Made by a program: the position numbers and the translations under genes. A stretch of DNA of 64,000 nt from Microbotryum violaceum (lineage: Eukaryota): the NCBI GenBank assembly GCA_001244265.2, contig CDLV01000008.1, forward strand, positions 1,426,001 through 1,490,000, given 5' to 3'. Positions 36,256-62,700 of the stretch are shown here, in pieces. The first letter of the stretch is position 1, and each line of letters begins with the position of its first letter. The notes under the pieces are model-generated. The model saw nothing but the letters and a program-made list of their open reading frames with translations. It made no database searches and had not been told where the DNA came from.

Positions 36256-37170
36256 CTAAATAAGGACAAGTCGCCTGCCCCTTAGCACCGCGAGGCAACT
36301 CGAGGCCAACAATTGCAATCCGAGAAGGTCGGCATCGTCCGGAAGAAATCGCGAGTCCACACTGTTGAAGGTGTTAGTAGACCTTGCACTAATATCAGGG
36401 GCCGGATAGCTTAGTTGGTCAAAGCTTTTCCAATGAATGGAAGCGATCCAGGTTCGACTCCTGGTCCAGCCGTTTTTTCTTCTTTTGTTGATCATCTCGG
36501 GATCATCGCTGATTCCAACACACACTACCATTGCAAAATTTCGGAAAAACTGTCTTAACAAGCTGCCTCCTGTGAGTTTTGGGCGAACAGATATTATCAT
36601 GAGCATATTTAAGTTCTGCTCGGAGTCGGAACCACCACTTGATCTACTTGAGACTCTGGTGCGCAGCGGCCAGCGGGGCGCCGCGCGGTGCGGGCCTACA
36701 GATTGCATCAATTGTCTTGCCGGGACATAGCGGCCTGTTCGATGTTACATACCCAACAAATTATGCGGGTCTTCTGTCGGTTGACCTTGATGATGGCCTC
36801 CAGGAAGAATAAAAATGAAACGTACAGGTTCATGACTGTGCGACTCTTGAAGTTCGTACCGACGGTTGCGCCGCGCCGCGCGCGAATATCACGTAGGCCC
36901 ACTGCCGCTATGTCACCCGTATTTATCCTTTCCCGTAGAGATGTGAAGATGGAACAAAGGCAAAACGTTTTTGCGTCGGAGTAAAAAACACGAGGATTGA
37001 AAGTCGTAGGAAGCAGGTTCAGCACCCGGGTTTACAGTGCTCGCGCAACCTTGCCCTTGTGAAAAGCTCACGAGCGAAGTCCGAAAGCAGTCCCACCACA
37101 AGCGCGGCCAACTACGAGTACGCCTGACCCCTAGTCTCAACGTGAAGCACCGTCTCAGGCATACTTACCT
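36256..37170 (-). pseudogene. Highly degenerate retroelement remnant (possible retropepsin/aspartic protease)
   Basis: Combining two frames around 37005-37050 gives RAL/VNPGAE/LNLLP, resembling the ALIDSGA..NL.P retropepsin motif; AT-richer, stop-ridden ORFs. Confidence 0.3.
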
Positions 37171-37745: not shown

Positions 37746-39985
37746 TTACTACCTCTGTATTAAAAAAAAGGTCGATCCGCGACCCATGTACCTAAAATCG
37801 CTATTTTTGACTATGTTGCGGCCCCTATAGTGAATGTACCAGTACAGTATTGGGTCTGCCGCACCTGCCTGTGATATTGGCGTCCCGACCAGAAGTCATG
37901 TAGCACCCTTTTCGCATTTTCTGCACCATAAAAGTCGAGCTACAGCCCGAGGAATTTTTTGTTGAGTTTTGGCGGGGTGCCCAACTATTGAGCAGTTTGT
38001 GTGGAATTTAATGTATAGCAAGCGCGTGTGTTTGCATGACACTTCTTCTACAGAGCTCCGGGGTGGTCTCGCCGTCATTGACGTGCGGGCGCAGGCGCGG
38101 CTCGATCACGTGACGTATTTTTTCCTTTCCGACACCGGTTTTAGGGACTCAACAACAACATGAGGTTCCAGGCGCTGTGAATACTCCCGCGCTGCTCTCT
38201 CTAATTTTCACCTTTTCGCTACCACTCTCATCGAATTCTCGTAACAACAGCGCCGAGTCTTTGGCGCGAGGGTAGCGCCGTACGATAGCGTACCGCGGGA
38301 ACATGGGGAGACCATGAGCCCGCTGGGCGCGCTGGGCCCCACGCTCCTCTTCTCTCCTCTTGGTCCGGGTCCGATGAACAGGATCAGCTCCCCGCGCGTA
38401 ATGACAACAATTAACCAACCTTGGTATTGCGAGTATAAGCGTCCGCCATACAGCTTTGTAGAACGGACAGCGTGGTCAGCGCGATGGCCCGATGGCCGAA
38501 CTGACGCTGAGCTCGCCCCACCACCACCTCTTCCTGCGCAGAGCAAGTGCACAGGCCTCGAACCCCGCTCAAACCACTCAAGCCCCACGTTCCCATCCGC
38601 GACTACCTCGGCCCCAGATGGCCGTGTGTGCCTACTGCATGGCTCGACACTGGGAGTGCAAAGGACGAACCGGACACCTGAGCACGTGCTGCTCGCAGGG
38701 TAAGGTGCAGCATGCCGCTGCCTCCCCCTCCCCAGCCCAATCTCGAGTATCGGCAGCTTCTTGAAGGCTCGGATGCCGGTCAGTTGCTCCGTCCGACAAC
38801 GTTCGTCTGCACTGTACTCACATGCTGAACTGTGCGACGATATTTCCACGGCAATCTTCCCACCCACACAGAAGCTAAAGCGTTCCGCGAGAACGCCCGA
38901 TCGTACAACAACGCGTTGTCGTTTACTTCGCTCGCTGCCCACTGGGACCAATCTCAAGTGGGCACTCTAGGACCCCCCGTGTTTCGCGTGTTTGGTCGCC
39001 TTTACCATCGACTCGGCGCCCTGATCCCTGCCGTGAACCAACGCCCAGCCTTTGCTCAAACATGGCTCATCGACCCGGCCGAGGCCACCGACACTCGACT
39101 TGGACCCGACGGCGCAGACAGTCGCATGCAACGATCTATTTTGACCAAGCTCGAGTCCATTCTGCGCACCGGCAATTGCTTTGTGAGGGAGTTCGCATCG
39201 GCCAAAGCTCGCGCAGGTTGGGAGGATCCTGCGCCTCTGCCTCCCGCCAGGCCGGGACCGACGCACCCACAACCTTCCTACGTCGAGCACGGAAATGGCG
39301 ATGCGGCGATGCTCATATGCGATTCCGACACCAACACGGGAGATCGTGGACGTCAAGACCTTATTCTCCAGGTGCACGGTGATCGATGTCCCGAGGGTCG
39401 GCCCAAGCACGAAATCGTTAGCTCGCTCCATCCGTCCGCGATGCCTCTCCGTTACCCACTACTTTTTCCTGCAGGGGAAGATGGCTTCCACCCCAACATT
39501 CCTCTTTGCGGGTTCTACCAAGCCGGGCCGCCCATCGCCAGAAACCGAGAGCAGATCGACAATGGTGTCCAATTGCGCGAGCTACTTGCCGGTCTCGGTC
39601 TGGATGACGAAGACGAAGAGGAGGACGAAGACCGCGACGATGATAATGAAGACGGCGAGGAAGGGGACGAAGAGAATGGTGATGATGAACGTAAGCGTCT
39701 TCCGCTCTTTCTCATATGTTCCTTTCTGTTGGGCCGGAAATCAAGGCTGCACTGGGGCCGAACGACAAAGCATACAACCGTCCGGATCTCATTGCACGAG
39801 TGCTCAAAGCCAAGTCCGGCAACAAGCAACGGCCAGGCTGTTTCGGTGATGAATGGATTTTGTTTCTTTGCTGTACTTCGTATTGTATTTTCTTAATTTC
39901 TGCGCTGAAATCATGTAGACTGTTCGATTATCCTGCTATTCTGTTTTTTTTTCATCCTCCCGTTAATTTAACGGGTTCCCACAGG
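37746..39985 (+). mobile_element. Helitron copy 2, internally deleted non-autonomous derivative
   Basis: 5' end and N-terminal Rep region closely similar to 26237-28190; PEIKAALGPNDKAYNRPDLIARVL Rep fragment; same 3' hairpin, with terminus CAGG instead of CTGG. Confidence 0.9.
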
Positions 39986-42999: not shown

Positions 43000-43041
<42 letters not shown>

Positions 43042-43160
43042 TTTTTTTGTTTTTTTTTTTGTTTTTTTTCTTCCCCTCCTTTTTCCTTCCCCTCCTTTTT
43101 CCTTTTTTCCCATTCTTTTTCTTTTCTTTTCTTTTTTTTCCTCTCCTCCCCCCACCCCCC
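42970..43160 (+). repeat. Poly-T / polypyrimidine low-complexity tract
   Basis: ~190 bp of T/C runs, including more than 30 consecutive T. Confidence 0.85.
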
Positions 43161-43737
43161 GACATGGGTACGGGCCCGGAAATCAAGGCTGCACTGTGGC
43201 CGAAGGACAAAGCATGCCATTGTCCAGATCTCATTGCACGAATGTTTGAATGGGCAGGCTGTCTCGACGATAAATGGTTTTTTTTTGCGTTTTTTGTTTG
43301 TTTTTGTTTACCTCGCTGAAATCATGTAGACTGTTCATCGATTCTCATGCGATTTGAATTTCATCCGCTCGTTAATTTAACGGGATCGGATCCCACTGGT
43401 AACGCCACAAAACTCAACTGCCAGTCTGAGAATGGAGCAGTAGTCTGTTTCATAGCTCGACTTTAACAGCGGGTAAAGTAGACCTCTTTGGTCAACTTTG
43501 CGAGTAATAGATTCATGCTACCAGTGACGCACAGACAAAATAAAAATCGCCCAGGCGCTTGGTCAAGAACGGGTGAGAGTGGGGCGATAGTTGGGTCCCG
43601 AGACGAGGGAAAGCAGTAGTGAAAGCAACTAAAAAGAAACGCGCACACGCATGATAGACACGAGACGAATCAGCCCAACCGCTACTTCCGCTACTTCCCT
43701 TCGAGAAGGGCGATGACCGTCAACGGGACAAAAAGTT

Positions 43738-43830
43738 CGATTGCGGCAGGATTCGAACCTGCGCCCTCAAAGAGGATGTGATGATTAGATTATTCGAATC
43801 ACACTCCTTAGACCACTCGGACACACAACC
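43738..43830 (-). tRNA. tRNA-Ser(CGA) with ~10-nt intron (43783-43792)
   Basis: Reverse complement GGTTGTGTGTCCGAGTGGTCTAAGGAG-TGTGA-TTCGAA[TAATCTAATC]A-TCACA-long variable arm-GCAGGTTCGAATCCTGC-CGCAATCG; A/B boxes present; downstream T5 terminator. Confidence 0.9.
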
Positions 43831-43890
43831 TTTAATTGCTGATAAATATGCTCCAAGAAAGCGTATTCAAAGTGCCAGACGCAAAATCAT

Positions 43891-46800
43891 CGCCGGAAGT
43901 CATCTCACTCTCCTTCTCGAAAAACTCAAGTCGCTAGGCACTGAAGTTTTCCCCGAGGGCGCCCTCTTGTCCTTGGATCAGCAGAGCGCGTACGATCGGG
44001 TCGATCACGCATGGATCTTCGACGTCTTCGAGGCCTTTGGCTTTGGTGAGCGTTTCATTTCCCTGCTGCGCGCTCTGTACGATCCCGAGACTCTGGGGGT
44101 GCGCTACCTCATCAATGGGTTCCCCACGGAGTTGGTGCGGTTGCTGTGTGGTCTCGGTCAGGGGATCCCCTCTCGTGCCCGGTTTGGAACATCACGTTCC
44201 AGCCCTTCCTCGACGCCCTCGTTCGGCGCGGGATCGCGCTCGACCTGCAGAAGGTGTGGCCAGGGGGCCGCGTGCGCAGCTTACGCATCTGGCGTTTGCC
44301 GACGATGCTGTGGTGGTAGTGGAGTCACCGGCGGCATTGTCGAAGCTGGAAACGCTGTCGCAGACGTGGTACGAGGCAACCAACGGGAAGACCAACACGG
44401 ACAAGACGCTGGTGCTACCACTCGGACCGAACTGGCTTCGGGACGAGACTGCGCAGGCGCTGCCAACGGTGCAGGAGGGGGAGAGCTTCAAGTGGTGCGG
44501 CTATGCCTTCTTTCGCCACGGTGACTCGAAACTGTTTTGGACCCATGTTCTTGACAGGATCAAGGCCAAGACCCGCGCCGCTGGAGACCGGACACTTTCG
44601 CCGAGTGGGAAGGTCTTCTATGCCAACGCTCACATCATCTCGACGGTCCTCCACGTGCTGTCCTTCGACATACCGCCTCAATGGTTCATTAAGGCGGCGG
44701 AGACAGCACTTACGGATTTTGTTTGGGGAGGAGCAGCGCGAAATACCGTCGCTCGCGATTTCGTGTTCCAGGCTCGGGAGGACGGTGGCTTGGGCTTGAT
44801 TTCAATCGGCGACATCGTTCATTCGGTGGCGCTTCGATTTTGGGATGCTGTGGCGGGCTCGAACGAGGCGATCTGGGCGCCCCTAGCTCGCGAGAGCTGG
44901 AGGTCCCTCGTCGCTGCGACCCGCGATTTCAGTCCGTGGGGGTTCTTCAGCAGCACGGCTCGGGTCGAGAAGCTGTATCGCGACTCGACGCGCTGGGGGC
45001 AGTCGTTGCAGCTGCCAGGGTCACAGTTCCAACCATCAAGCCCGAACTCCTTACGCTCCCCGAATTGCTCTCGCTTCCGCCTCGCCTCCCTTCACTCTAT
45101 GCTGAAGGTGCCAAGCACGCATATGACGATGCGGACGCAGTGGCGAAGTTTGCGCAGATCGCGGACCTGTACTGGAGGGACGAAGGGAAGGGCTGGGCTC
45201 TGGTTGGTCATCGACGCGGGTTCTGGCAGCACTCTAAGGAACCCGCCCTACAGCACGAGCACGTGTGGTCGCGCGTGGGTCAGTTGCTCAAGGCGAAAGC
45301 CTTGCTGCCCAAGACCGCGTTGCGACCTGCTCGGATACCTCTCAAGGAGGCTCCCCGTCCTCGGTGCTTCAACTTCTTTGGGCTCACCCGACCGTTCACT
45401 ATTCGCAAGCTTCGTCGGCTTGTGAACGTGGTTCGGTTCCCAGGGAGGGAGGATCGTGTCAAGCGTTTCCGTGATGGGACTTCTCAGAGCGATAGGAAGC
45501 GCTTCTGGAGATGGCTTCATGACCGGTTTGCGTCTGCTGTGGAGCAGGACACCCACTGGCGGCTCATGTACGACGTGACGCCGACGCGCAAGAGGCAGCA
45601 TACTCAGGGTCATGCCTCTTCGCCGACGTGTCTGTTCTGCGGCAACGATGCAGCGGTCATCGAGACGGTGTCGCACTACTTCTTCGAGTGCGCGTACTCG
45701 ACCAGCTTCTGGGGTGGGGTGCTTCGCATTCTGTTCGACAAGCTGGGCATCGAGGATACCGACGTCGATCCGTCGACGTTCACTCCGGAGCAGCTGACTA
45801 TGGGGCTCCCCCTTTTGCGGGGTCGTGGGAGAACGACCTCGAAATGGATGTGGGTTCGGCTGGCTTGCGCGATCGGCTTCCAGCGGCTGCACCTGCTCCG
45901 CTGGCGCGTTCATCAGCGGTTCGAGCTGGACAAGGTCGTGGCCCCTCCCTCGCTCCCCAGTGCACTCAGAGCGTTCGAGCGAGATTTTCTCTCTCGAGCG
46001 GGTTTTGTGCCTGGGGCTCGAGATTGGGAGGTGTGATGACCGAGTTAAGTCCTTCCTTCCCATTTTCCTCCCCTCCTTTCCTCCCTTCTTTTTCGGAGGT
46101 CGACTCCTCTTTTGTGAGCTGACTGTCTTGGAACTTGTTGCGCAGTGGAAGGCTGCGCACCTCTCCCTCTCTCTCTCTACTTTGCGCAGTAGCGGTTTTT
46201 TGTTCTTGGATGGATCGGCAAGCCAGGTCGATTGTCTTTGCGTTGTAGGCTTTGTGAAGTTTTTCCCTCTCCTTTCCCCCTTTTTCCCTTCCCTTCCTCT
46301 TCTCGTTCCTGTTGCTCGGTTGTTGACTACGCTTCAGCCACTTCTCCTTTTACTCCTAAGCCGTGTGTTGGATTCCGTTGAATGGTTCGTTCGTTCGCGT
46401 TGGTCAAGATCTACGGCATGGCTCGGGAAGGAAGGTCGCTCGTTTCTGGTCAATATCCTCGCGTCAAGGCGAGGCTCGTTTCGTTGTACTGGATCGCTTT
46501 TCTCTCGGCCCCGACGGCTCAACAGCCAGCACTCGAGATTCAGCCAAGGGAGGACATCAGGCGCTGTCGGGGTGACGAGTAGCTGGGGCTTGGCTGCGGC
46601 CTGTTAGTCCCTGGGGACCTCTACCTCCGGCTTCGACCCCCTACCTTGGCCCCTCGGGTGTGTTCCCCTCCTCTCTGTCTTAGTATTCCTGGTTCTCCGT
46701 ATCCCCAGTCGTGACTTTCTGTATACTCTCCCCCTTCTTTCTCTAGGCGCTCTTGCCTGGTTTTCGAGTATCTTTGCTCCCGCTCTTGGGATGTGAAGCG

Positions 46801-47001
46801 GCAGCAGTACTCACCGCCCGTTGGAGTCCGCGTTAGGTGCTCGACGAGTTTTGATCTGCGCAGCGCTCTTTGCGCGCAGGGGTTTGACTTTCACCCAACT
46901 GCTTGCCGTCGTTGCTTTATAACCTCCTTTAGCTCTTTTTGTAGCGGTCCCAGCCAACCCGAAGGATTGCAATTTATGAGCCCCAGTCAAAAAAAAAAAA
47001 A
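43891..47001 (+). mobile_element. LINE family A copy A1 (L1/Tx1-type), 5'-truncated, with poly(A)
   Basis: Starts inside RT (LSLDQQSAYDRVDH, GLGQG, LAFADD); C-terminal zinc finger CLFC...ETVSHYFFEC; ~950-bp 3' UTR; A13 tail at 46989-47001. Confidence 0.92.
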
Positions 47002-48010
47002 GGTGGACGACACCGACCACTACTTTTTCGACTGCGTTGACTCTGGGAACGTTTGGATCGCGGCAAGGAGCGTGCTCTGCGACGCACTGGGGCTCGACAC
47101 GATCGACAACACGCATTACACGGCTGTTCAACGCATGTTCGGACTTCCGAAGCTCAAGGCCAGTCTACGCGATCAAGAAGGAGCGGGGAGGACGATCGAA
47201 ATATTCACCGGGCTGGTCTTGGAGATGATCAGCAGCGGGAGGTGGGGATGCAGAAGTGGGGGACGAAGATGGAGGGTGTTGTGAGGAGGAGGATCATCTT
47301 GGAGGAGAGGTTGAAACTGAGGGCGGGAGGAGCTTGGGGGAGGAGAGGGCAGTAGAGGCTGGGTTCGACTTTCCCCCCACCACCACCACACACACACACC
47401 AAATTCTCGTGACATCATTTTCTCCTACTGTACACTAAATAGATCGCTTTCATCTTTCATTTGTTACAGGTTCACCGTTGCGGATCATGGACCATCTCGC
47501 GATTTGGCGTCGACTCGGTGTGGCTCGCGCTCTTCGGCTTCGGGGTTCTGAGTCAAGGGAGGGATCAGCGGACACAGGCAGAAAGTCGGCTTTGAGGGGC
47601 CAGGGACTGCCGATGGGGGAGGTTTTGAGGGACCTTCACCGCGTCTTGTTGTGACTGAGCAGAGACTTGGAGCGTCGAGGGTCGTGGTGGTTGCGCAGTC
47701 GTGCTCTTGTCTTCGTCTCGACCGAGTGGGAAGTGGCTGTGGGGTGGGCCTTCTGTCGTTAGTACATTTCTTTTCTTTCTTTTTTTTCTCTTCATCTCTC
47801 TTTCTCTCTCTCATTAGTCTCCTGGGGGGAGCAACCGCTTGGCTAGGGCATTTGAATCCGAATCTCGGATTGGTGGACTTGGCTCGTTTCTCGCACTTTT
47901 GCGGGCGGTTTGTGTTATCATCGTAGTCTTCCATCTAGTTTTTCCGTAGGCCAAAACAGGGGGAACAGGAACTGGGGGCAATATGATGAACGTTTTCTAC
48001 AAAAAAAAAA
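47002..48010 (+). mobile_element. LINE family B copy B1, 5'-truncated, with poly(A)
   Basis: Begins with an ORF2 C-terminus (DDTDHYFFDCVDSGNVW...) paralogous to family A; distinct 3' UTR ending GATGAACGTTTTCTAC-A10. Confidence 0.8.
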
Positions 48011-48015
48011 TATGC

Positions 48016-48269
48016 CGTTAGTACTTTTCTTTTCTTTCTTTTTCTCTTCATCTCTCTTTCTCTCTCTCATTAGTCTCCGGGGGGGAGCAACCGCTTGGCT
48101 AGGGCATTTGAATCCGAATCTCGGATTGGTGGACTTGGCTCGTTTCTCGCACTTTTGCGGGCGGTTTGTGTTATCATCGTAGTCTTCCATCTAGTTTTTC
48201 CGTAGGCCAAAACAGGGGAACAGGAACTGGGGGCAATATGATGAACGTTTTCTACAAAAAAAAAAAAAA
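48016..48269 (+). mobile_element. LINE family B copy B2, 3'-end fragment with poly(A)
   Basis: Near-identical to 47757-48010, ends TTCTAC-A14; flanked by ATGCC on both sides. Confidence 0.82.
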
Positions 48270-50634
48270 TGCCAACGCTCACATCATCTCGACGGTCCTC
48301 CACGTGCTGTCCTTCGACATACCGCCTCAATGGTTCATTAAGGCGGCGGAGACAGCACTTACGGATTTTGTTTGGGGAGGAGCAGGGCGAAATACCGTCG
48401 CTCGCGATTTCGTGTTCCAGGCTCGGGAGGACGGTGGCTTGGGCTTGATTTCAATCGGCGACATCGTTCATTCGGTGGCGCTTCGATTTTGGGATGCTGT
48501 GGCGGGCTCGAACGAGGCGATCTGGGCGCCCCTAGCTCGCGAGAGCTGGAGGTCCCTCGTCGCTGCGACCCGCGATTTCAGTCCGTGGGGGTTCTTCAGC
48601 AGCACGGCTCGGGTCGAGAAGCTGTATCGCGACTCGACGCGCTGGGGGCAGTCGTTGCAGCTGCCAGGGTCACAGTTCCAACCATCAAGTCCGAACTCCT
48701 TACGCTCCCCGAATTGCTCTCGCTTCCGCCTCGCCTCCCTTCACTCTATGCTGAAGGTGCCAAGCACGCATATGACGATGCGGACGCAGTGGCGAAGTTT
48801 GCGCAGATCGCGGACCTGTACTGGAGGGACGAAGGAAAGGGCTGGGCTCTGGTTGGTCATCGACGCGGGTTCTGGCAGCACTCTAAGGAACCCGCCCTAC
48901 AGCACGAGCACGTGTGGTCGCGCGTGGGTCAGTTGCTCAAGGCGAAAGCCTTGCTGCCCAAGACCGCGTTGCGACCTGCTCGGATACCTCTCAAGGAGGC
49001 TCCCCGTCCTCGGTGCTTCAACTTCTTTGGGCTCACCCGACCTTTTACGATTCGCAAGCTTCGTCGGTTTGTGAACGTGGTTCGGTTCCCAGGGAGGGAG
49101 GATCGTGTCAAGCGTTTCCGTGATGGGTCTTCTCAGAGCGATAGGAAGCGCTTCTGGAGATGGCTTCATGACCGGTTCGCGTCTACTGTGGAGCAGGACA
49201 CCCACTGGCGGCTCATGTACGACGTGACGCCGACGCGCAAGAGGTAGCATACTCAGGGTCATGCCTCTTCGCCGACGTGTCTGTTCTGCGGCAACGATGC
49301 AGCGGTCATCGAGACGGTGTCGCACTACTTCTTCGAGTGCGCGTACTCGACCAGCTTCTGGGGCGGGGTGCTTCGCATTCTGTTCGACAAGCTGGGCATC
49401 GAGGATACCGACGTCGATCCGTCGACGTTCACTCCGGAGCAGCTGACTATGGGGCTCCCCCTTTTGCGGGGTCGTGGGAGAACGACCTCGAAATGGATGT
49501 GGGTTCGGCTGGCTTGCGCGATCGGCTTCCAGCGGCTGCACCTGCTCCGCTGGCGCGTTCATCAGCGGTTCGAGCTGGACAAGGTCGTGGCCCCTCCCTC
49601 GCTCCCCAGTGCACTCAGAGCGTTCGAGCGAGATTTTCTCTCTCGAGCGGGTTTTGTGCCTGGGGCTCGAGATTGGGAGGTGTGGTGACCGAGTTAAGTC
49701 CTTCCTTCCGATTTTCCTCCCCTCCTTTCCTCCCTTCTTTTTCGGAGGTCGACTCCTCTTTTAGAAGCTGACTGTCTTGGAACTTGTTGCGCAGTGGAAG
49801 GCTGCGCACCTCTCCCTCTCTCTCTCTACTTTGCGCAGTAGCGTTTTTTTGTTCTTGGATGGATCGGCAAGCCAGGTCGATTGTGTTTGCGTTGGAGGCT
49901 TTGTGAAGTTTTTCCCTCTCCTTTCCCCCCTTTTTCCCTTCCCTTCCTCTTCTCGTTCCTGTTGCTCGGTTGTTGACTACGCTTCAGCCACTTCTCCTTT
50001 TACTCCTAAGCCGTGTGTTGGATTCCGTTGAATGGTTCGTTCGTTCGCGTTGGTCAAGATCTACGGCATGGCTCGGGAAGGAAGGTCGCTCGTTTCTGGT
50101 CAATATCCTCGCGTCAAGGCGAGGCTCGTTTCGTTGTACTGGATCGCTTTTCTCTCGGCCCCGACGGCTCAACAGCCAGCACTCGAGATTCAGCCAAGGG
50201 AGGACATCAGGCGCTGTCGGGGTGACGAGTAGCTGGGGCTTGGCTGCGGCCTGTTAGTCCCTGGGGACCTCTACCTCCGGCTTCGACCCCCTCCCTTGGC
50301 CCCTCGGTGTTTCCCTCCTCTCTGTCTTAGTATTCCTGGTTCTCCGTATCCCCAGTCGTGACTTTCTGTATACTCTCCCCCTTCTTTCTCTAGGCGTTCT
50401 TGCCTGGTTTTTGAGTATCTTTGCTCCCGCTCTTGGGACGTGAAGCGGCAGCAGTACTCACCGCCCGTTGGAGTCCGCGTTAGGTGCTCGGCGGGTTTTG
50501 ATCTGCGCAGCGCTCTTTGCGCGCAGGGGTTTGACTTTCACCCAACTGCTTGCCGTCGTTGCTTTATAACCTCCTTGAGCTCCTTTTGTAGCGGTCCCAG
50601 CCAACCCGAAGGATTGCAATTTATGAGCCCCAGT

Positions 50635-50669
<35 letters not shown>
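48270..50669 (+). mobile_element. LINE family A copy A2, 5'-truncated, with poly(A)
   Basis: Near-identical to 44621-47001, with a CAG>TAG stop at 49245-49247; A34 tail at 50636-50669. Confidence 0.92.
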
Positions 50670-50672
<3 letters not shown>

Positions 50673-50880
50673 CTCTCTCTCATTCGTCTCCTGGGGGGAG
50701 CAACCGCTTGGCTCGGGCACTTGAATCCCAAGTATCGGATTGGTGGACACCGGCCCGTTTCTCGCATCTTGCGGGCGGTTTGTGTTATCATCATCAACTT
50801 CCATCTAGTTTTTTCCGTAGGCCAAATAGGGGGAACATGAATTGGGGGCAATATGATGAACGTTTTCTACAAAAAACAAA
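50670..50880 (+). mobile_element. LINE family B copy B3, more diverged 3'-end fragment
   Basis: Homologous to the B1/B2 3' end with multiple substitutions; ends TTCTACAAAAAACAAA. Confidence 0.8.
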
Positions 50881-50885
50881 TACCC

Positions 50886-51107
50886 ACAGGCCGCAGCCAA
50901 GCCCCAGCTACTCGTCACCCCGACAGCGCCTGATGTCCTCCCTTTTTTTTTGTTTTACTGGGCTCATAAATTACGATCCTTCGGGTTGGCTAGAATCGCT
51001 ACAAAAAGGGCTAAAAGAGGTAATAAAGCAACAATGACAAGCAGCTGGATGAAAATCAAACCCCTGCGCGCAACGAGTGCTGCGCAGATCAAAACCCGCC
51101 GAGCACC
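50886..51107 (-). mobile_element. LINE family A 3' fragments on the minus strand (3' UTR piece 50886-50942; diverged 3' terminus with poly(A) 50943-51107)
   Basis: Reverse complements of ~46547-46604 and ~46836-46995; T-run at 50943-50955. Confidence 0.8.
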
Positions 51108-51416
51108 GGCTTGTATACATGTAAGGATATATCCTTACACATGATTTAAGGTCAATACACAACCAAATCTGTTCATCTTGATATTGTAACATCAACATAT
51201 AACTATTTCTGAATGGTGTCTGCAAGGACTACATGATAGCATGTGTATTGCAAGACTTGTAGTGATTCAAAATTTATTTGTCCTTACCGCACCTCCCGTA
51301 GGCCCGTATCCTTACCGCACCCTGGTATCCTTACATGTGTCAACACATGTAAGGATACGCCCGCGCGCGCACATGACATGCGTAAGGATACGCTATACGC
51401 TCGCGCGCAAAGAGCA
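51108..51416. repeat. Putative DNA-transposon end, copy 1 (second copy at 56866-57146)
   Basis: ~300-bp direct repeat starting GGCTTGTATACATGTAAG, with multiple GTAAGGATA/TATCCTTAC inverted motifs. Confidence 0.7.
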
Positions 51417-52245
51417 TGTTGTGGGAAATTAGTAAAGGGTCAGCGGTCCAGAGGGACTTGTGGCATTGGGAAGTTGATGCGCGCGTGGCGCGGCGCCGGA
51501 TGGAGGCAGATGGCGGTGTGGCGTATTGATTGGACTCAGAGGTGGCTTGCACGCGGATACTATCTAAGGCTCTGGTCTCGTTCACTCTCTCCTTCTTCTT
51601 TAACACACACTCGATATCTATCTCGCCCATTCGCCTGCTACAAGTTGATTGACCTTGGCGATACTCTATCTCACAATAGGTCATCTATCAACGCCGTGTA
51701 GCTACAGCGAATCTTCATTCATTCATTGGTACTCCAAGTCCAAATCCACAACAGGTTATGAGTTCGACGACTACCACCAATGTATCGAATGAAGGGGACG
51801 TCAAGATCACCAAGCTCGGTAAAGATAACTACGAGCTGTGGTCAATCCGAGTCGACGCGTTCCTCGAAGGTCGTGGCTACAGCAGTGTACTTCAACACGG
51901 AGCCAACCGACCATCGAGTATGGATGTGCAAGCATGGAAGACTCTCCATGGCATCGACTCAAGTTTAGAGCAGGGCAAGGTCCCGACTCTAATCACCAAG
52001 TGGGATCGTAGTGCGCGCGCGATCATCATCTCGTGCCTCGACGATTCGAATCTCAAGATGGTCAAGAGCAAGTCGCTCTCAGCCAAAAACATCTGGGAGA
52101 AGTTGAAACAACACCACGAAGGGAACTCCGATCCGTTCAAGATTCGCACGCTACTCTACGAGATTTCGAATGCGTCGTACGATGAGGACACCAACCTCGG
52201 CGAGTTTCTCCAGGGCATCACGGACAAGGTCGATCAACTCGAAGA
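51417..52245 (+). mobile_element. Ty1/Copia 5' fragment: LTR 51417-51753, PBS, truncated gag
   Basis: TGTTG...CAACA LTR followed by a GGTTATGAG PBS and the gag N-terminus [22 protein letters not shown]...[13 protein letters not shown]. Confidence 0.88.
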
Positions 52246-52524
<279 letters not shown>

Positions 52525-54764
52525 ACGCGGCCCCCTGGCCACACCTTCTGCAGGTCGAGCGCGATCCCGCGCCAAACGAGGGCGTCGAGGAAGGGCTGGA
52601 ACGTGATGTTCCAAACCGGGCACGAGAGGGGATCCCCCTGACCGAGACCACACAGAAATCGCACCAACTCCGTGGGGAACCCATTGATGAGGTAGCGCAC
52701 CCCCAGAGTCTCGGGATCGTACATGGCGCGCAGCAGGGAAATGAAACGCTCACCAAAGCCAAAGGCCTCGAAGACGTCGAAGATCCATGCGTGATCGACC
52801 CGATCGTACGCACTCTGCTGATCCAAGGACAAGAGGGCGCCCTCTGGGAAAACATCAGTACCGAGTGATCGGAGTTTTTCGAGAAGGAGAGTGAGATGAC
52901 ATCCCGCGTCCGCTGAACGTCTTGATGGCATGAACCCGTGTTGCGCCGGCGGCAAAAGCTCGCCGAGCACCCCATTGAGTCGCGCCACCAAGACCTTGCT
53001 GAGGACCTTGTAGATCGTCTCGCGCAGTTTGATCGGTCGATATGCCCCCAGTGATTTCAGATTGGCCCCCGGTTTATTCTTGGGCAAGAGCCGCACCAGC
53101 CCCTCTGCCAAGGACGCCGTCATTTTACCCCCCTCCCAAATCGAGTTGAACAAATCCAACAGCTTGGGAGCAAAGTAGGTTGGCAGCGCCTTGAAGAGCT
53201 CGTACGGAATGCCCGAGGGCCCCGGTGATCGCCCCGAATCCGTCTTCTTCAACGCCGCTTCGACCTCGGAAAGGTTGAAGGGCTCGTCAAGCGCCACGCT
53301 GGCTTGAAGGGGCAGCCGACGACCGAACGTAGGGTCCGAGCGGTCGTCATCGTAGCATTTCGCTGCGCGAATAGGGTCGAGCAGGGACCGACGTGCGTTC
53401 GTCGGGTCGCCACGAGCTGGGTCCGGCGTGAAGAGCGACTGTGCGTGCCGTGAAGCAATACCCAGCGCCTCCTGCATGTCAACGACCTCGGTGCCATCCA
53501 CATCCTCCAGCGAGACGATGCTCGTCTGGCGACTCCGGCGGTTGAGACGCGTGCGAATGCTTGCCGATTGACCTTCCCTCGAGTCGACTGACGGCACATG
53601 CGCACGAATGCGCAGCCACTGAGCCTCCTTTACCGCCAACTGATCCAACTGCGACTTGGCGAGAGCATACGCATCGCGCTCGGCCTCATTCATATGCTCA
53701 CCGCGTGCCTCCAACGCCTCCATGACGGATTGGTTCTCGGCCCGCAGTCGGCGCATGTCGGCACGAGTCGAGCGGTATCGTGCGTGGCCAGCGGCTGCGA
53801 CCGCCCGCAAAGCGGCGTCATAGACGTCACCGAGTGGAGCGGTCGCCTCGAGTCTCCGATAGACCTCGTCGACAACCCCGGGAATCGAATCGACAAAGCC
53901 TTGATCGTTGAAGACCGTTGGGTTTAGCCTGGAAATGAATTCACTCGTGGTGGGAAGAGCAGGGGGTGGTTCGGCATCAGCAGCGTTCGATGTAGGCAAT
54001 GCGAAAGTCGCAACTACGGGTCTGTGGTCCGAGCAGGGCGCATCGAAGAGTGTGGAAGCGCTCAACAACCGGTTTGCCCAACTGCGCTGGACAAGGATAT
54101 AATCGATCCGCGACCACGAGCAGATTTCTCGTTTGTCCCGCCTACCAAGGTAGTGAGGGCGAGTGAATGCCGGGGTGATGGGATGGAGTTGTCGGATCGT
54201 GTCGAGTGGGTTGAATGCGATCTTTGACAGCAAGGTCTGCCAGTGCGATACAGGAGTCCAAGCGCGATCGGTGATGGCCACTCGGTCGACCGATACATCC
54301 GGACAATCATTGAGATCGCCGGCCAAGATCCGAAGAGTCTTGGGCCCCGGAGCGGTGAAGTGCAGGAGCCCGTAGAAGTCGCGACGCTCTTCCCCCTTGA
54401 CCGGCGCATACATGTTGATGATCTCGATATCGAGCTCCTCAAGACGAAACACCGAGCGCAGGATCCGACCGTCGAATTGAGGGGATTCTGCAAACACGAC
54501 CGGGGTAGAGGAGAGGAGACGGCCCGCCAGAGGTGAGCCATCGGGTATAAGGGTAAGGACATGAGGTGCGAAACGAAGACAAGCTCCTGGCCAAGCACTC
54601 TCGAAGCCTTCGCGCGACGCGTTGTAGCTGAGGTGGTGCTCTTGCAGGAGAATGGCCGCAGGGGCCGGCCGAAGGGTTTTTAGATAGCGGATGATTTTGA
54701 CTTGGTTGACTGCGTTCTTGATCGATCGGACGTTGAACGTCAACACGGTGAGGGACTCAATCAT
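52525..54764 (-). CDS. LINE ORF2 (APE endonuclease + N-terminal RT), truncated
   Basis: TFNVRS, LLQEHH, NMYAP, AGDLND, SRIDYI, SDHRPV (APE); SPGPSG, YRPIKL, QHGF, LSLDQQSAYDRVDH, GLGQGDPLS (RT). Confidence 0.92.
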
Positions 54765-54776
54765 GAATAAATTGGA

Positions 54777-56455
54777 TCAGCGCCGCCCCCCTTCGAATTC
54801 CGGCACCTCGGACCTGTAACCCCCGGAACTGTTGCCCCCTGAGTCGTCACCCCCTGATGCACCGAGGATCATGGCGGATCCCGCCCGGGTGACACGTCGG
54901 TTGCCGGGTGCCGAGCTCGAACGAAGGCGTCGAGGACTCGTCGAGGCTATCGAGGTCGTCGAGGTTGCCGATGATTCCGACGTGCCACCGGACAAAGGCG
55001 ATGCCGGAGCAGAAGTAGAAGGCGAAGGAGAGGTCGGGGTCGAAACGGGCGCCGCTGTCGTCGTCTGCGTCTCCTTTGTTGGGCCCGTGGTCGCACGGGT
55101 CAACGTCTCTTTCCCAGTGTCGCCGCCCTCCGGTTCGGTCGAAGCGACCGATTCGCCGTCGTCGTCGTCGTCGTCACTGTCGCCGTCGTTCGCATCGTCC
55201 TTGTTGCCGGTCGCTGCACCTGCGGGGTTAGCACGAGGTCCCAGCTGGATCATGTTCGTGCCAGAGGCACGAGAGTTCAATGCGGCGGGCCCACCGTGCT
55301 TCCCATTCTTTCCAGCAACTCGGAAGCCGGTGGTCGAAGTCGAAGTCGAAGTCGAGGCCCCCGGAACAGGGGCGGCGGTGGCCGGAGTCGAAACCGGCTT
55401 CCTGCAAGCCCCCCACTGGTGTCCAGCGCGATCGCACACGGCGCAGTAGTGCGTCTCAAATTCGTGTCGCAAGCCGTACTTGGCGCCCAGGATCTCGATC
55501 TCTTGTGGCAAGGCGGCGTTGAGCGCAGCCTTCTGCGTCTCGGTGGAGCCTTGGAAAAGATCAGCATGTAAGCGAAGGTACGCGCAGTGGAACCCGTCTT
55601 CGGTCATGGCCATCGGGTCACCGTTCGGATCGACCGCGAGGCCCCGCTGTAATTGCATGAGGGTATACCCTTGCGTGCAACCAGCGTGGCCGAAGGAGGA
55701 AGTGAGAGCAGCGTCGAGAGATTTTCGGAGCACGGAAGCGGGAATCGCGCTGGAAGAGGAGGGTAAGGTGAATCGCACCTGGACGATGTGGTTTAGGGGG
55801 GAAACACTCGGGAGCTCGGTGACCATCTCTTTTCCGTGATAGGGGAATGGACCCGCTGCAGCGGCTTCGAGACAGGCCTGGTCGGATTCGAACACGAGCT
55901 CGTACATATGACGAGCAATCGGGAACCTCTTCGTTGCCTTCGTCACGATCAGGTTCAGCTTCACACATTTCGAGAAGAGCTTCTCGACCTCGGGGGCAAG
56001 CTCGGCGCCCTCGGGCCGCGCGAACATGAATGGCGTCTCGGCCAGCCCAAAGTGCTTACGCAGCGCAATCTGTACAGGGCCTTTTGGGGACCCAGTACCA
56101 TCCATGATGACTCGGATCACGTTGGAGGCCGGCATCGCGTCGTTTCGTACCGCCCTTTGAGCAGCTCGTGCGAGAGCCGGCGCCTGCGAAGGCGGGCTGG
56201 AGGGTCATACAACAGTACCATCAGCCGGCGGGTCGACTTGGAGGATGGTACGATGCCAAGGGCTTTGAAAGCCTTCTGCATCGACTTCTCATGGTCCAAT
56301 CGAGCCCGAGAAACCTGGGCAGACCAGGCTGGAGGATTAACGGTTCCTCCAGTGACCGTCTCACGGGTTTCCGTGTTGAGTGATTCATCTCTCAACACGT
56401 CACCAGCCCACGGAGCGTTGGGCGGGTGCGGGGGTGGGCCGGGCGGATCCGGCAT
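54777..56455 (-). CDS. LINE ORF1 (gag-like, CCHC knuckle), one frameshift near 56200
   Basis: CAVCDRAGHQWGAC knuckle; the MPDPPG N-terminus at 56455 joins the 452-aa frame via a 1-nt shift; ends 12 bp before the ORF2 ATG. Confidence 0.8.
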
Positions 56456-56546
56456 CACTTCTTGTAGGCGTCCTGTAGCTCTTGAAGCGGTTGGTGGGCG
56501 ACTGTACACACTACACGACGGTACACACTTTGTGTGTGTGTGAAGA

Positions 56547-56563
56547 TTTTTTTTTTTGTAGAA
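56547..56563 (-). mobile_element. Possible extremely truncated LINE family B tail (TTCTAC-A11)
   Basis: The reverse complement TTCTACAAAAAAAAAAA equals the 3' terminus of B1-B3, but only 6 non-A bases match. Confidence 0.5.
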
Positions 56564-56620
56564 GAAATCACGTGACGCGTTAATAAGAATATATAAAGCA
56601 CCAAAGGCACTTCTTCTAAA

Positions 56621-56691
56621 TCCTCGATGGTCTATTGGTATGATTCGGCTCTCTCACAGCCGCGAACGGGGTTCGATTCCCCGTCGGGGAA
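56621..56691 (+). tRNA. tRNA-Glu(CTC)
   Basis: TCCTCGA acceptor stem pairs with TCGGGGA; anticodon arm CGGCT-CTCTCAC-AGCCG; T arm CGGGG-TTCGATT-CCCCG; T5 terminator at 56695; upstream TATATAAA near 56590. Confidence 0.92.
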
Positions 56692-56865: not shown

Positions 56866-57146
56866 GGCTTGTATACATGTAAGTATATATCCTTACCCAT
56901 GAGTTAAGGTCAACACACAACCAAATCTGTTCATCTTGATATTGTAACATCAACATATAACTATTTCTGAATGGTGTCTGCAAGGACTACATGATAGCAT
57001 GTGTATTGCAAGACTTGTAGTGATTCAAAATTTATTTGTCCTTACCGCACCCTCGTATCCTTACATGTGTCAACATGTGTAAGGATACGCCCGCCCGCGC
57101 ACGTGACATGCGTAAGGATACGCTATACGCTCGGGCGCAAAGAGCA
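56866..57146. repeat. Putative DNA-transposon end, copy 2
   Basis: Direct repeat of 51108-51416, continuing into the unique region carrying the protease-like gene. Confidence 0.7.
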
Positions 57147-59701: not shown

Positions 59702-62700
59702 TATTGGAGTTTGATCTGTTTAAGTTAGGGAGCGCGCGGGGCTTTTCTTCCCGCGCGGCTGTTTACTCTTGGTAGCTTTCTCATCACTTGCTCCACATTG
59801 TGGTCCTGACTTCTCGGTGTCGTGCACCCTCACCTATCAGAAGGCTATACTTCCGCGCTCTCATTGTTTCTGCGATAGGTTATGAGCTCAACGGGTAGCG
59901 TAGGAGGCCCGGGTCAGAAAAACGAATCCCATTGCACCACCATCGGTATGGACACCGATTCACCGTCCACCGAAACGAGTGATCGTGGATTGCATGTCCC
60001 AATCCTTCGCGCATCCAATTACATGGATTGGCGCCGACGTCTGATTGGTCGTCTGGGCTCCAAGGACTTGCATCTTTGCGCATCGAGGCCGTTGAGCGAC
60101 GCTGCGAAGGCCGTTCTTCAGGTCGCAATCAATGATCAATCGCGCGGCTTCTACTCGCCTCTCGAGCGGCTCGACTTCGCAGCTATGGACGCGAAGATCG
60201 CCAAGGAGCTAATGAAGGAGGTTTGAACTCAAGCTGAAATCATTCAGTTTCTCGATGAGGCCAATCTTCGCTTGGTCAGGGGTTGTTACACGTCTTACAA
60301 CATACTCGACTTGCTGAACACGTTCTACCTCGGAACGATGAGCGCTCAGATTTCCGCCTTGACGACTGAGCTCTATGCGCGCAAGTTCTCGTCTGGCGAT
60401 CGTGGGCAGTTACTGCATCACTTGACCACCATCCAAGGAATTTTGCAAGATCTTGAGGCGTGTGGCTCTGGGATGCCACCAGCTCAACAGTTGACGCTGA
60501 TGCTCGATTCCGTCTTCGACCCGCAACACGAGTCGTTCACAAGCTCACTGCGTCGACCTCTGGCTCTACCTTCGGAGATTGTTTCCGAGGCACGGTCTTA
60601 CCAGTTCAAAGTCTCGCTGGAAAGTCGAATCAATGGACTATCTGCCATGACTTCCGGACGCGCCATGGCTCCGTCGCCTGTTCCTGCGCTCGTTGCGCAA
60701 GGCGAATCACAAAAGGGCGCGCGTCACAAAAGACGTCTCAAGAAAGGCAATCGTGACGGGCAAGGAAATCGCCGTCCTACCGATTCCACCTGTCATGCGT
60801 GTGGAGCGAAGGGACACTGGTCTTGCGATGCAGTGTGCCCGGAAAAACGCTCGAAGTCATCTGCAGCCCCCGCATTGGTTGCAATGAACTCCTATTCCGT
60901 TTACCTTGCTGGTTCTTCCTCGAGAGCTCCCGATGCCGACTTCGTTTGGATCGCGGATACCGGAGCTGGTCACCACTTCGTTGGCGATTGTTTGCTGCTC
61001 TCGGATTTCAAAGAATCCCCAATTCAAGTCCAGATGGCCGACAACTCGCTTGGTCAAGCCACTGGATACGGGCGAATGTCTGTTAAGGCTTCGCAAGGTC
61101 ACCTTCTCAACTTCAAGGAGATGTACTACCTCCCTGGATCGAAGTATGGTCTAATCTCAATGTCGTCGCTCCGCGCTGGAGGCGCGAAATTGGTTTATGG
61201 CCATGGGGGAGATACTCAACAGGTTTGGCTTGACGGCTCTCTCGTCGCCGAAACTGTCAAGACGAAGGCCAAACAACCAAGTTACGTCTTCGATTTTGAG
61301 ATTGTCTCTCCACCCTCGCCTGTGCTTGTCGCAGCTACCCGTGCTTCCGTTGGAGCTTCGCTCATGGAATGGCATTGGAACTTCGGACACATGGCACCCT
61401 CTTCAATTCTTCAACTCGTCAAATCCAAGGCTATTGTTGGAATTCGTTTACTCGACAAGAAGATTGAAGACTGTGAGCCGTGCATTATCGCGAAGGCGCG
61501 CGCGGGCTCTCACAAACATTTCAGTCAAAAACCCGGACATGTTCTTCAACGGGTTTCGATCGATCTGGGATTCGTCAATGATGACGATACCAATGGACGA
61601 TCCATATATACGGTTATCGTGGACCAACTTTCAACCTATAAGTGGGCTTTTCCACTTGGTTCCAAGTCGGCATCAGAAGTCCTCAAGGTCTGGCGTGGCT
61701 TTCAAGCGCAGGTCGAGAGGCAGTCCGGTCAGAAGATCAAGTTTGTTCAATCTGACAATGGAGGCGAGTTCGAGGTCTTCTTTGGCAAGCAACCCGACGT
61801 TTCGCATCTTCGCGCGTTCGGATCTACTGCCTACGTTCTCGTTCCCAAGGCGATTCGTAAGAAGCTCGATGACCATACTGTCAAGGGTACTTTCCTTGGC
61901 CATTCGGGGGAGTACAACTACAAGGTTCGGGTTGAACACCGTCGGTCTTTCAAGATCGTCGTCTCTTCCGATGTCACCTTCTCCGACAAGGCTCCTTCGA
62001 TCGCGGACTCGGCTGTCGAGCCTCGCATCTACGAAGTTGAACCTATACAGGAACACGAGTTAGTACATCAACTGCCGTTTCCTGGCTTGGAGCAGATTTC
62101 GGCTTTACGGCCTGCGCTCGTACCCGAGCTTGGTCCGGCTTTTCGGCCAGCTCCCGCTCCTCTTCTTCGTTTCCAAGATATGGACGATGACGACGTTGCT
62201 CCTCCTCCTTTACCGGCTGTCGGCCCGTTGGCCGAAGACGCCGAAGTTGAAGAGGACCCGATTGATCATCGACGCGAGGAAGCAGTTGAGGCTATCGACA
62301 GTGACGATGACAACGGCCCTGCGGAACACGATCAACCATTACCTCCTGAGGATGGTTACGAGTATCGACCTTACCGTGTCGGCCGCAACCCCGGTGCGCT
62401 CGAGAACGTCGATGCCGGCAATATTTTACCGACTCGCCTGCGTGCTCAGCGTCGTGCAGACGCCCTTCGTGTCGTGTCTACTCGCTCGGTCTACCGTCAT
62501 CCACCAGAGCTCATTGCTATGGTTTCGTCTTGTCACACCCCGCTTCCCAAGACGTTTGCGGAAGCGATAGCCTCTTCTGAGGCCAAACACTGGATGGCCG
62601 CTTCTGAGAAGGAGTTGGGCTCATTCAAGTTGCACAAGGTCTTCAAGCTTACAAGGCTACCCACCGGGGCTCGCGCCCTGGGCTATCGTTGGGTGTTCAC

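Follow-up and report, generated by a model that had tools for sequence, protein, structure and literature searches.

Why is the space between two divergent tRNA genes of the anther-smut fungus Microbotryum violaceum packed with LINE copies that follow each other head to tail, and can the order of these copies be read as the order in which they arrived? The window analysed, i.e. the whole stretch of 64,000 nt, holds 12.8 kb between tRNA-Ser(CGA) and tRNA-Glu that are filled by two opposed stacks, the members of which are mostly 5'-truncated copies of two LINE families, here called A and B. The stack on the plus strand begins 60 nt upstream of tRNA-Ser(CGA) and its mirror image begins 57 nt upstream of tRNA-Glu. 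Every A or B sequence that BLAST detected in the 64 kb falls between these two genes. The anchors and their flanks are as follows.

43738–43830, minus strand: tRNA-Ser(CGA) with a 10-nt intron, anchor of the plus-strand stack (Rfam RF00005, 43 bits; ARAGORN, introns allowed)
43831–43890, no strand: unique 60-nt flank from the 5' end of tRNA-Ser to the first LINE base, no significant match to A or B
56564–56620, no strand: 57-nt upstream flank of tRNA-Glu
56621–56691, plus strand: tRNA-Glu(CTC), divergent from tRNA-Ser(CGA), anchor of the minus-strand stack (51.3 bits)

The default scan of ARAGORN labels the tRNA at 43738–43830 as Arg(TCG), and the assignment to Ser(CGA) is obtained when introns are allowed. 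The bin 43477–43953 shows a single-copy-like depth in three out of four sequencing runs, and a search for LINE remnants within the 60-nt flank of tRNA-Ser returned only chance-level matches of 8–11 nt. In both stacks the 5' end of the LINEs lies towards the 5' end of the tRNA. Stacks are thus present at two of the three tRNA genes of the window, with flanks of 60 and 57 nt (n = 2 loci), and the third gene (36400) is without a LINE.

Judged by their sequences, A and B are sister families of L1-like LINEs and distinct from each other, with ORF2 products that are 39% identical over 958 aa. Both encode an endonuclease, a reverse transcriptase (RT) and a zinc finger (Pfam Exo_endo_phos, RVT_1 and zf-RVT); PF03372 and PF00078 were found in ORF2 of copy A3 as well as in the full-length homologues P0001 (family A) and P0069 (family B). 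The best relative among solved structures is the human LINE-1 ORF2p (PDB, E 2e-26). ORF1 gave no match in Pfam. With an APE-type endonuclease and an RT in ORF2, poly(A) tails and variable 5' truncation, these elements have the make-up of L1-like LINEs.

The plus-strand stack consists of the following pieces.

43891–47001, plus strand: A1, family A (body 43891–46988, A13 at 46989–47001; BLAST and ORFs)
47002–48010, plus strand: B1, family B (body 47002–48000, A10 at 48001–48010)
48011–48016, plus strand: TATGCC, the orphan first 6 nt of A2 (6/6 match to A, 4/6 to B)
48017–48269, plus strand: B2, last ~240 nt of family B (body 48017–48255) with A14
48270–50669, plus strand: A2, family A (body 48270–50635) with A34 (BLAST)
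50670–50882, plus strand: B3, last ~200 nt of a B-type element (body 50670–50870), 89.5% identical to B1 over 200 nt

An earlier note on this DNA had described five layers in the order A1, B1, B2, A2, B3, all on this strand, each with a terminal A-run and with almost no spacer between them. This architecture is confirmed, with spacers of 0–6 nt. The tails are A13, A10, A14 and A34 plus the degenerate one of B3 (AAAAAACAAATA), and the five layers have five distinct points of 5' truncation. A1, the 5' end of which was set by alignment to A3, is truncated inside the RT and retains the remaining ORF2 including zf-RVT (Pfam), followed by a 3' UTR of ~950 nt; relative to most contigs of the family it has three 1-nt deletions in G-runs (44160, 44262 and 44994). 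B1 is truncated at the C-terminal zinc-finger region of ORF2 and keeps its 3' UTR; the translation of 47003–47284 matches B-type ORF2 proteins with 88–92% identity. B2 corresponds to positions ~751–996 of B1 (97.2% with gaps), forms a 256-nt tandem with it and lies within A2, 6 nt from the start of that layer. A2 in turn equals positions 730–3113 of A1 (98.6% over 2383 nt) and shares one 1-nt deletion with it (48643 in A2). The TAG that had been reported as present in A2 and absent from A1 is real (49244–49246) and due to a C>T change at 49245 compared with 45596 in A1; furthermore, A2 has lost a stop codon at 49685. Sequencing depth is lower over parts of A2 than over A1, which might hint at A1 being nearer to the common sequence of the family, a hint on which we do not rely, the placement of contigs between such near-identical copies being ambiguous. 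Six of the eleven A/T runs of at least 9 nt in the window are placed at LINE junctions, and the motif TTCTAC plus A6, which is the 3' end of B with its tail, occurs four times against 0.00 expected.

The centre of the locus and the minus-strand stack hold the following pieces.

50886–50944, minus strand: 59-nt fragment of family A (positions 2656–2714 of A1), 100% identical to A1 and A2
50943–51107, minus strand: old 3' end of family A (87.5% identity to A1), its tail slightly degenerate
51108–52524, no strand: non-LINE insert between the old A piece and A3
52525–56546, minus strand: A3, family A with a complete 5' end, 95.6% identical to A1 over 384 nt
56547–56563, minus strand: B remnant, TTCTAC (terminal 6 nt of family B) with A11, directly 5' of A3

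A3 comprises the 5' UTR, an ORF1 with a CCHC knuckle and an ORF2 with endonuclease and RT that is open over 755 codons; it carries a frameshift at 56200 relative to the family contigs and ends abruptly at position 383 of A1, the 3' half being lost. The insert next to it contains an LTR-like repeat (51108–51416, 87.7% to 56866–57146) and, beyond this, a unit with 47-nt inverted repeats at its bounds and a copia-type gag ORF. Within the tRNA-Glu stack no piece lies further from the tRNA than the 59-nt fragment, which comes after the tail of the old A piece; with 50196–50254 it makes up a perfect inverted repeat. Twin priming and repeat-mediated inversion were rejected as its origin, as orientation and arm lengths do not fit; possibly it is a short repair patch, templated by the opposite strand of the nearby A2. 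At the tRNA-proximal end, a contig from sequencing run X16 spans 56513–56691 with 0 differences. The mirror stack thus also holds a B remnant and an A copy with a full-length 5' end, in agreement with the earlier claim that two families use the same site.

The equal flanks of 60 and 57 nt, together with the orientation of the elements at both genes, point to a site that is defined by the tRNA. We assign a probability of roughly 0.55 to the following account as a whole, that is, a landing site set by the tRNA, insertion on the proximal side and a rough stratigraphy of A and B layers. Target-primed reverse transcription would bring both families into a landing site ~57–66 nt upstream of the mature tRNA 5' end, approximately where the Pol III initiation complex would have its upstream edge, and their insertion would leave no or only a very short target duplication. 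Each new copy would go in at the border of the tRNA flank with the layer before it, or would invade that layer by a few bases, and the older ones would be displaced outward, so that the stack would become a rough, but not a clean, stratigraphy. We infer both the guidance of A and B by the tRNA gene or by Pol III and insertion on the proximal side as the rule. One target can be read directly: the last 4–5 nt of the orphan TATGCC recur after the tail of B2 as a target-site duplication, (A)TGCC. If the tRNA flank abutted this TATGCC at the time when B2 inserted, the site was 62–66 nt away from the tRNA. Inspection of the junctions revealed no target duplications for A1, B1, A2 and B3 beyond possible A-only repeats. 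Repeated insertion at one tRNA-defined site, as it had been proposed, is favoured by the equal geometry at two tRNA genes; copies of the tRNA flank between the layers were not found at the junctions of the stack.

How far can the layers be read as a chronological record? At one point the order is directly visible: (A)TGCC stands on both sides of B2, and the orphan TATGCC in front of B2 belongs to A2; thus A2 predates the more proximal B2. In addition, the outermost pieces would be old, the most diverged ones being located far from their tRNAs (B3 with 89.5% and the old minus-strand A piece with 87.5% identity, i.e. ~10–12% divergence). The visible divergence of B3 ascribed to it before is thereby borne out, while A2, its proximal neighbour, keeps a pure A34 tail and the proximal A3 is 95.6% identical to A1. 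Divergence yields no relative ages for A1, B1 and B2, and no age difference emerges between A1 and A2. The broader statement that distal copies are more damaged is not confirmed: private changes are about as numerous in A1 as in A2, B1 hardly differs from B2, and the proximal A1 has three 1-nt deletions. A1 and A2 differ by 29 substitutions and 2 indels. Five of the 13 substitutions that could be polarised are private to A1 and eight to A2, and with four more changes polarised by CpG decay the ratio becomes 8 to 9. Some of these differences are clustered (45394–45400 and 46114–46116), which suggests different source copies. The undiverged 59-nt fragment in the centre runs against the gradient as well. 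Furthermore, B3 may represent another B subfamily and not an older copy, because its differences from B1 mix transitions and transversions; the same mix ruled out RIP-like hypermutation as the cause of its divergence. Divergence is a poor clock at these stacks, and the proximal-to-distal chronology of the layers is our inference.

An unlikely alternative is a targeting of poly(A) tracts like that of Zorro3, in which the endonuclease or the primer would prefer A-runs, so that each incoming LINE would mostly enter the tail of a resident one, or land next to it, and be orientated like it. Layers need then not be in chronological order, and the tRNA would merely happen to be near the first A-tract or in open chromatin. 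The targets of Zorro3, an element of the L1 superfamily in the fungus Candida albicans, are poly(A) tracts, and poly(A) is found on either side of its copies; the available text of these sources gives it no known preference for particular chromosomal regions or for tRNA genes (PMC7175516, PMC3956500). Like family A, it is an L1-type LINE of a fungus, with a zinc knuckle in ORF1. The likeness extends to the junctions: an A-run directly precedes the 5'-truncated element at each of them, the A11 on the 5' side of A3 provides this copy with poly(A) on both flanks, and the young-looking 59-nt fragment lies behind the tail of an older A piece. Concatenations of A and B are also frequent in other genomes, as this explanation would have it. 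Among 100 Microbotryum gene models, 11 concatenate A>B, B>A or B>B (in P0006 and P0010 a B tail is followed by a truncated A), and run X16 contains further junctions of the types B tail>A, B tail>B and A tail>A. The recurrence of the concatenation in other Microbotryum genomes is thereby shown, and it speaks for the tRNA-based account as well. Among 15 of the 16 joints from four public runs, where contigs are short and broken by repeats, none skips exactly one layer, a result that does not argue against polymorphism of the layers. Scanning metagenomes for relatives with flanks yielded two matches, one on a contig of 1.6 kb and a weak one on a contig of 1.7 Mb; no tRNA was found on either, so that neither bears on the association.

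The poly(A) explanation, however, leaves the spacing of 57–60 nt to the tRNAs and the orientation of the 5' ends in both stacks unexplained; in contrast to Zorro3, both stacks are anchored at tRNA genes. The only readable target, that of B2, is outside an A-run: B2 landed ~1–6 nt past the A10 of B1, and the T-run would be on the wrong side of the presumed B2 nick for priming. B3 would have to be younger than A2, yet it is far more diverged and its tail is degenerate, as opposed to the pure A34 of A2. Finally, the T36 run at 43005–43040 carries no A or B insertion, which argues, if weakly, against an A-tract alone being the target.

It is quite unlikely that targeting plays no part and that the locus is an ordinary nest of transposable elements, filling tolerated DNA between tRNA genes and altered by duplication, inversion or deletion, or partly mis-assembled, with flanks of ~60 nt as that which selection preserves upstream of a tRNA. 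The region is indeed rich in transposable elements, with copia-type elements and LTRs inside and beside the stacks, and secondary rearrangement is clear from the lost 3' half of A3, the 59-nt inverted repeat and the 256-nt tandem of B1 and B2. All frameshifts are in G-runs, which would fit homopolymer errors of long reads, and the junctions of the plus-strand stack are taken from the assembly alone, read contigs being too fragmented. But from random nesting one would not expect five or more layers on the same strand, tail to truncated head and 0–6 nt apart, nor does it explain the matching grammar and orientation of the opposite stack. Three other species have such junctions in their gene models as well, and an independent run has them in its contigs. 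The copies differ from each other by 1.4–10% and their junctions are distinct; therefore, they are not duplicates made by the assembly.

Chimeric retrocopies of L1 are known, and they share with the A/B stacks direct joins in the same orientation, internal poly(A) and the lack of a duplication in between. Least probable of all is nevertheless that the stacks, wholly or in part, arose in this way in one event, by an RT jumping from the 5' end of a truncated LINE RNA to the poly(A) of another one, so that layers would be coeval and only their sources differ: spacers of 0–3 nt, mostly without visible target duplications, the equal divergence of A1 and A2 and the near identity of B1 and B2 would agree with it, as would the template switching shown for the RT in Zorro3 insertions in S. 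cerevisiae (available text of PMC7175516), but a target duplication of its own and its position in A2, which it splits after 6 nt, mark B2 as a separate event, B3 with ~10% divergence and a decayed tail beside the pure A34 suggests different ages, and the tRNA geometry is not accounted for by template switching alone. At single junctions such as A1/B1 it is possible.

For tRNA-directed insertion, the closest known systems are TRE5 of Dictyostelium discoideum and NLTR-B of Polysphondylium pallidum, which, like A and B, are L1-type elements with two ORFs, an APE endonuclease, RT, zinc finger and oligo(A). TRE5-A produces target duplications of 12–16 bp, whereas at the A/B junctions there are no flank copies or visible duplications except for the 4–5 nt at B2. 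TRE5 is located 40–54 bp and NLTR-B 39–64 bp upstream of tRNA genes (available text of PMC5911963), and for TRE5-A the same orientation rule and a distance of 47±3 bp are given (available text of PMC5391098). A and B are likewise found at a short distance upstream of a tRNA (57 and 60 nt, n = 2), which is about 10 nt further away, and in two of two stacks their 5' ends point to that of the tRNA. They differ from TRE5 by their host, which is a basidiomycete and not an amoebozoan, and by the presence of two families, only 39% identical, at one site.

HeT-A, TART and TAHRE of Drosophila and Zepp of Chlorella also form head-to-tail arrays, in which repeatedly added non-LTR elements with 5' truncations and poly(A) tails all point the same way. 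These arrays record successive insertions, as the A/B stacks would; they are anchored at telomeres or centromeres, whereas the A/B stacks are located at Pol III genes. In arrays with a free end the newest layer is the distal one, whereas the growth point proposed here would be internal and proximal to the tRNA.

In the available text of a 2018 review, targeting of tRNA genes by non-LTR retrotransposons is described, and such elements are listed, only from dictyostelid amoebae (PMC5911963), where it serves as the textbook example of how an element finds a 'safe haven' when the genome is compact. Our search of the openly accessible literature found no report of tRNA-linked LINEs in Microbotryum or other fungi. 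By analogy with the dictyostelid elements, we tentatively suggest, at somewhat less than even odds, that A and B are LINEs directed to Pol III genes which read the upstream edge of the tRNA complex, the first in fungi and outside the Amoebozoa, with a landing site shared between two families and, at each occupied tRNA gene, a stratified record of the alternating activity of both. If poly(A) tracts were the target instead, the stacks would be an ordinary by-product of a known preference. The layout of the A/B stacks at tRNA genes is one known so far from social amoebae, and it is readable as a time series only in part. If tRNA-directed insertion is true, the fungal counterpart would be a further case of convergence or the sign of an old trait of the L1 clade, and besides the amoebae there would be a second system for studying the recognition of the Pol III complex by a target-primed element. 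For Microbotryum, it would mean loci whose layer order dates the bursts of two competing LINE families across species.

The 12.8 kb between the genes for tRNA-Ser(CGA) and tRNA-Glu are taken up by two LINE stacks of opposite orientation, in each of which the 5' ends point towards the tRNA of that stack. The plus-strand stack, composed of layers of the two LINE families A and B, begins 60 unique bases from the 5' end of tRNA-Ser(CGA):

43738-43830, minus strand: tRNA-Ser(CGA), Rfam 43 bits, with a 10-nt intron if the scan permits introns
43891-46988, plus strand: body of A1, tail A13
47002-48000, plus strand: body of B1, tail A10
48011-48016, plus strand: TATGCC, six bases between the B1 tail and B2
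48017-48255, plus strand: body of B2, tail A14; the last ~246 nt of B1, 97.2% identity with gaps
48270-50635, plus strand: body of A2, tail A34; A1 positions 730-3113, 98.6% over 2383 nt
50670-50870, plus strand: body of B3, tail AAAAAACAAATA; the last 200 nt of B1

BLAST, alignments, an A/T-run scan and the junctions bear out the five-layer order, the strand and the A-tails at 43891-50882 as the earlier note had stated them. The stack is real but its surroundings extend further than was then described, since a second stack on the minus strand lies beyond those coordinates. Anchored at tRNA-Glu (56621-56691, divergent from tRNA-Ser(CGA)), this one reads outward:

flank of 57 nt
TTCTAC followed by A11, what is left of a B element (its final six bases and the tail)
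a single T between this B remnant and A3
A3, family A, 5'-complete, with ORF1 and an ORF2 open for 755 codons, broken off at the site corresponding to A1 position 383
non-LINE insert of 1.4 kb, an LTR-like repeat plus a unit with copia-type gag
old A 3' end with tail, 87.5% identity to A1
50886-50944, A fragment of 59 nt, meeting the B3 tail across 3 nt

One contig of the public sequencing run X16 matches 56513-56691 with 0 differences, an interval reaching from the 5' end of A3 through the B remnant and the flank into tRNA-Glu; X16 may come from the source of the window itself. The arrangement in the plus-strand stack is far from chance, because LINE junctions hold 6 of the 11 A/T runs of at least 9 nt in the whole 64 kb, and the motif of B 3' end plus tail gives four matches versus 0.00 expected. 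The G+C content is 51-61% per 2-kb window, except for 48% at 42-44 kb. No A or B sequence was found in the 64-kb window outside the interval between these two tRNAs.

In family A, a CCHC knuckle can be read from the translation of ORF1, which gave no Pfam match. Its ORF2 encodes an APE-type endonuclease, a reverse transcriptase and, at the C-terminus, a zf-RVT zinc finger, and its 3' UTR measures about 950 nt. Family B, which matches many Microbotryum gene models (67 matches), has an ORF2 of the same architecture. Since ORF2 identity between the families is 39% over 958 residues and the nearest solved structures are those of human LINE-1 ORF2p (E 2e-26), A and B are, judged from their sequences, two sister L1-like families and not two versions of one. 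For the LINE proteins encoded in the window, identity to Microbotryum silenes-dioicae, M. saponariae and M. intermedium gene models is 84-97%, which places the source of the DNA in the genus Microbotryum.

Several other elements lie around the stacks. An LTR-like repeat of ~290 nt with TG...CA ends occurs at 56866-57146, 175 nt downstream of tRNA-Glu, and, with 87.7% identity, at 51108-51416 inside the minus-strand stack, beside the gag-encoding unit, which is bounded by 47-nt inverted repeats; a copia-type polyprotein ORF is located at 60227-63466. Downstream of tRNA-Ser(CGA) and in its orientation, 43005-43310 contains a degenerate A-rich tract (43278-43310, minus strand), a repeated unit of ~110 nt, a purine-rich stretch and a 36-nt A-run; these may represent tails of a further, third family of retroelements. 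One portion of this stretch, 43173-43387, resembles 39731-39978 (70% similarity) and shows repeat-level depth in public runs. The default ARAGORN scan had called the tRNA at 43738-43830 as Arg, a call replaced by Ser(CGA) once introns were allowed; a 'tRNA-His' with a 961-nt intron at 23368-24425, obtained under the latter setting, has no Rfam support and is probably spurious. The third tRNA, a 73-nt ARAGORN prediction with anticodon TGA (Ser) at 36400-36472, is the only one in the window with no LINE stack found beside it. It does not have the long variable arm expected of a tRNA-Ser, by our reading carries an A instead of U before the anticodon, and may be an aberrant or inactive gene.

The flanks of tRNA-Ser(CGA) and tRNA-Glu have no sequence in common and the two tRNA genes are unrelated. 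Flanks of 60 and 57 nt together with the same orientation would be hard to get by accident, although this is a comparison of two loci. It is mainly this geometry which favours a tRNA-defined landing site. The earlier note had proposed that both families compete for one such site; on the basis of these two loci, a site common to both is the best reading, to which we give a probability of about 0.55. The orientation is the same as for the Dictyostelium element TRE5-A, which is reported to integrate 47+/-3 bp upstream of tRNA genes with its 5' end always towards the tRNA 5' end (PMC5391098). Distances of 40-54 bp for TRE5 and of 39-64 bp for the Polysphondylium pallidum element NLTR-B are stated in a 2018 review, whose passages on tRNA-targeted non-LTR elements give these from dictyostelids only (PMC5911963). 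Among the papers searched, none was found that describes tRNA-linked LINEs for Microbotryum or another fungus.

One insertion can be followed in detail. TATGCC after the B1 tail matches the A sequence preceding the A2 start at 6/6 positions, versus 4/6 for the B sequence there, and (A)TGCC is repeated after the B2 tail. It follows that A2 was already in place when the more proximal B2 inserted six bases inside the A2 5' end and duplicated 4-5 nt of target. This case shows an independent target-primed insertion. If A2 was adjacent to the flank at that time, the target of B2 lay 62-66 nt from the tRNA. Such a distance is consistent with a narrow interval measured from the tRNA, within which each newcomer would land at the flank or intrude by a few bases on the layer already there. 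No copies of the tRNA flank were seen between layers, so the other insertions made no duplication or an A-rich one only.

That age increases with distance from the tRNA, as had also been suggested, holds in part. B3 is indeed visibly diverged (89.5% to B1 over the last 200 nt, hence ~10%) and has the sole degenerate tail, with A2 and its pure A34 tail on its proximal side. In the tRNA-Glu stack, the distal old A piece is less similar to A1 than the proximal A3 (95.6%), and the order of A2 and B2 points the same way. Against it count the 59-nt central fragment, which is 100% identical to A1 and A2, and the likeness of A1 and A2; B3 might also belong to another subfamily. A clean gradient is thus not shown. 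Between B1 and B2 there are three substitutions and two homopolymer indels; where B3 polarises, both changes are in B2. The 59-nt fragment is truncated at both ends and lies at the very junction of the two stacks. With the A2 copy at 50196-50254, 631 nt away, it makes up a perfect inverted repeat; a repair patch or what is left of one layer are possible origins.

A1 and A2 differ by 29 substitutions and 2 indels. Thirteen substitutions could be polarised, read contigs being used where their full depth contradicts the window in at least two runs:

by homologous proteins of other species: private to A1, 44737 and 45041; private to A2, 45419, 45479, 45536, 45596 (TAG) and 46036 (stop lost)
by the old minus-strand A piece: private to A1, 46844 and 46847; private to A2, 46930 and 46936
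by read contigs: private to A1, 46246; private to A2, 49844

The TAG noted earlier as present in A2 and absent from A1 is thus an A2-private change. The further claim that A2 is the more damaged copy is not confirmed: private changes number 5 in A1 versus 8 in A2, would become 8 versus 9 if CpG decay polarises four more sites, and A1 itself has three 1-nt deletions in G-runs (44160, 44262, 44994) relative to most family contigs. For these reasons the sequence comparison does not demonstrate that A2 is older than A1 or has suffered more damage. Some of the differences form clusters (45394-45400, 46114-46116), suggesting that the two derive from different source copies. A2 shares the 44994 deletion, at 48643; together with 56200 in A3, the frameshifts of the A copies relative to most family contigs from public runs are all single missing bases, four of five in G-runs, and may be real mutations or could be homopolymer errors of a long-read assembly.

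A real rival to the tRNA-defined site is targeting of poly(A) tracts. Zorro3, an L1-type LINE of Candida albicans, is described as integrating into such tracts with poly(A) on both flanks (PMC7175516, PMC3956500), and A3 likewise has A11 on its 5' side. The equal geometry at both tRNAs, the position of B2 outside an A-run, the ages suggested by B3 and A2, and the T36 tract at 43005, which remained unused, count against this as the whole story. Template switching, reported in the same sources for Zorro3 in S. cerevisiae, could have produced single junctions but cannot account for B2 or for the difference in tail decay between layers.

Stacking is not confined to this contig. A>B, B>A or B>B concatenation is present in 11 of the 100 Microbotryum gene models retrieved; in two of the model proteins (P0006, P0010) a B tail runs straight into an A truncated at points other than here. 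Contigs of X16 contain further junctions of a B tail with A, a B tail with B and an A tail with A. This recurrence makes A/B stacking a property of the genus and not of this locus. Five gene models of other Microbotryum species (P0035, P0055, P0056, P0067 and P0098; 1476-1946 aa) run through two stacked LINE copies, and such stacks thereby inflate the predicted proteomes of these assemblies.
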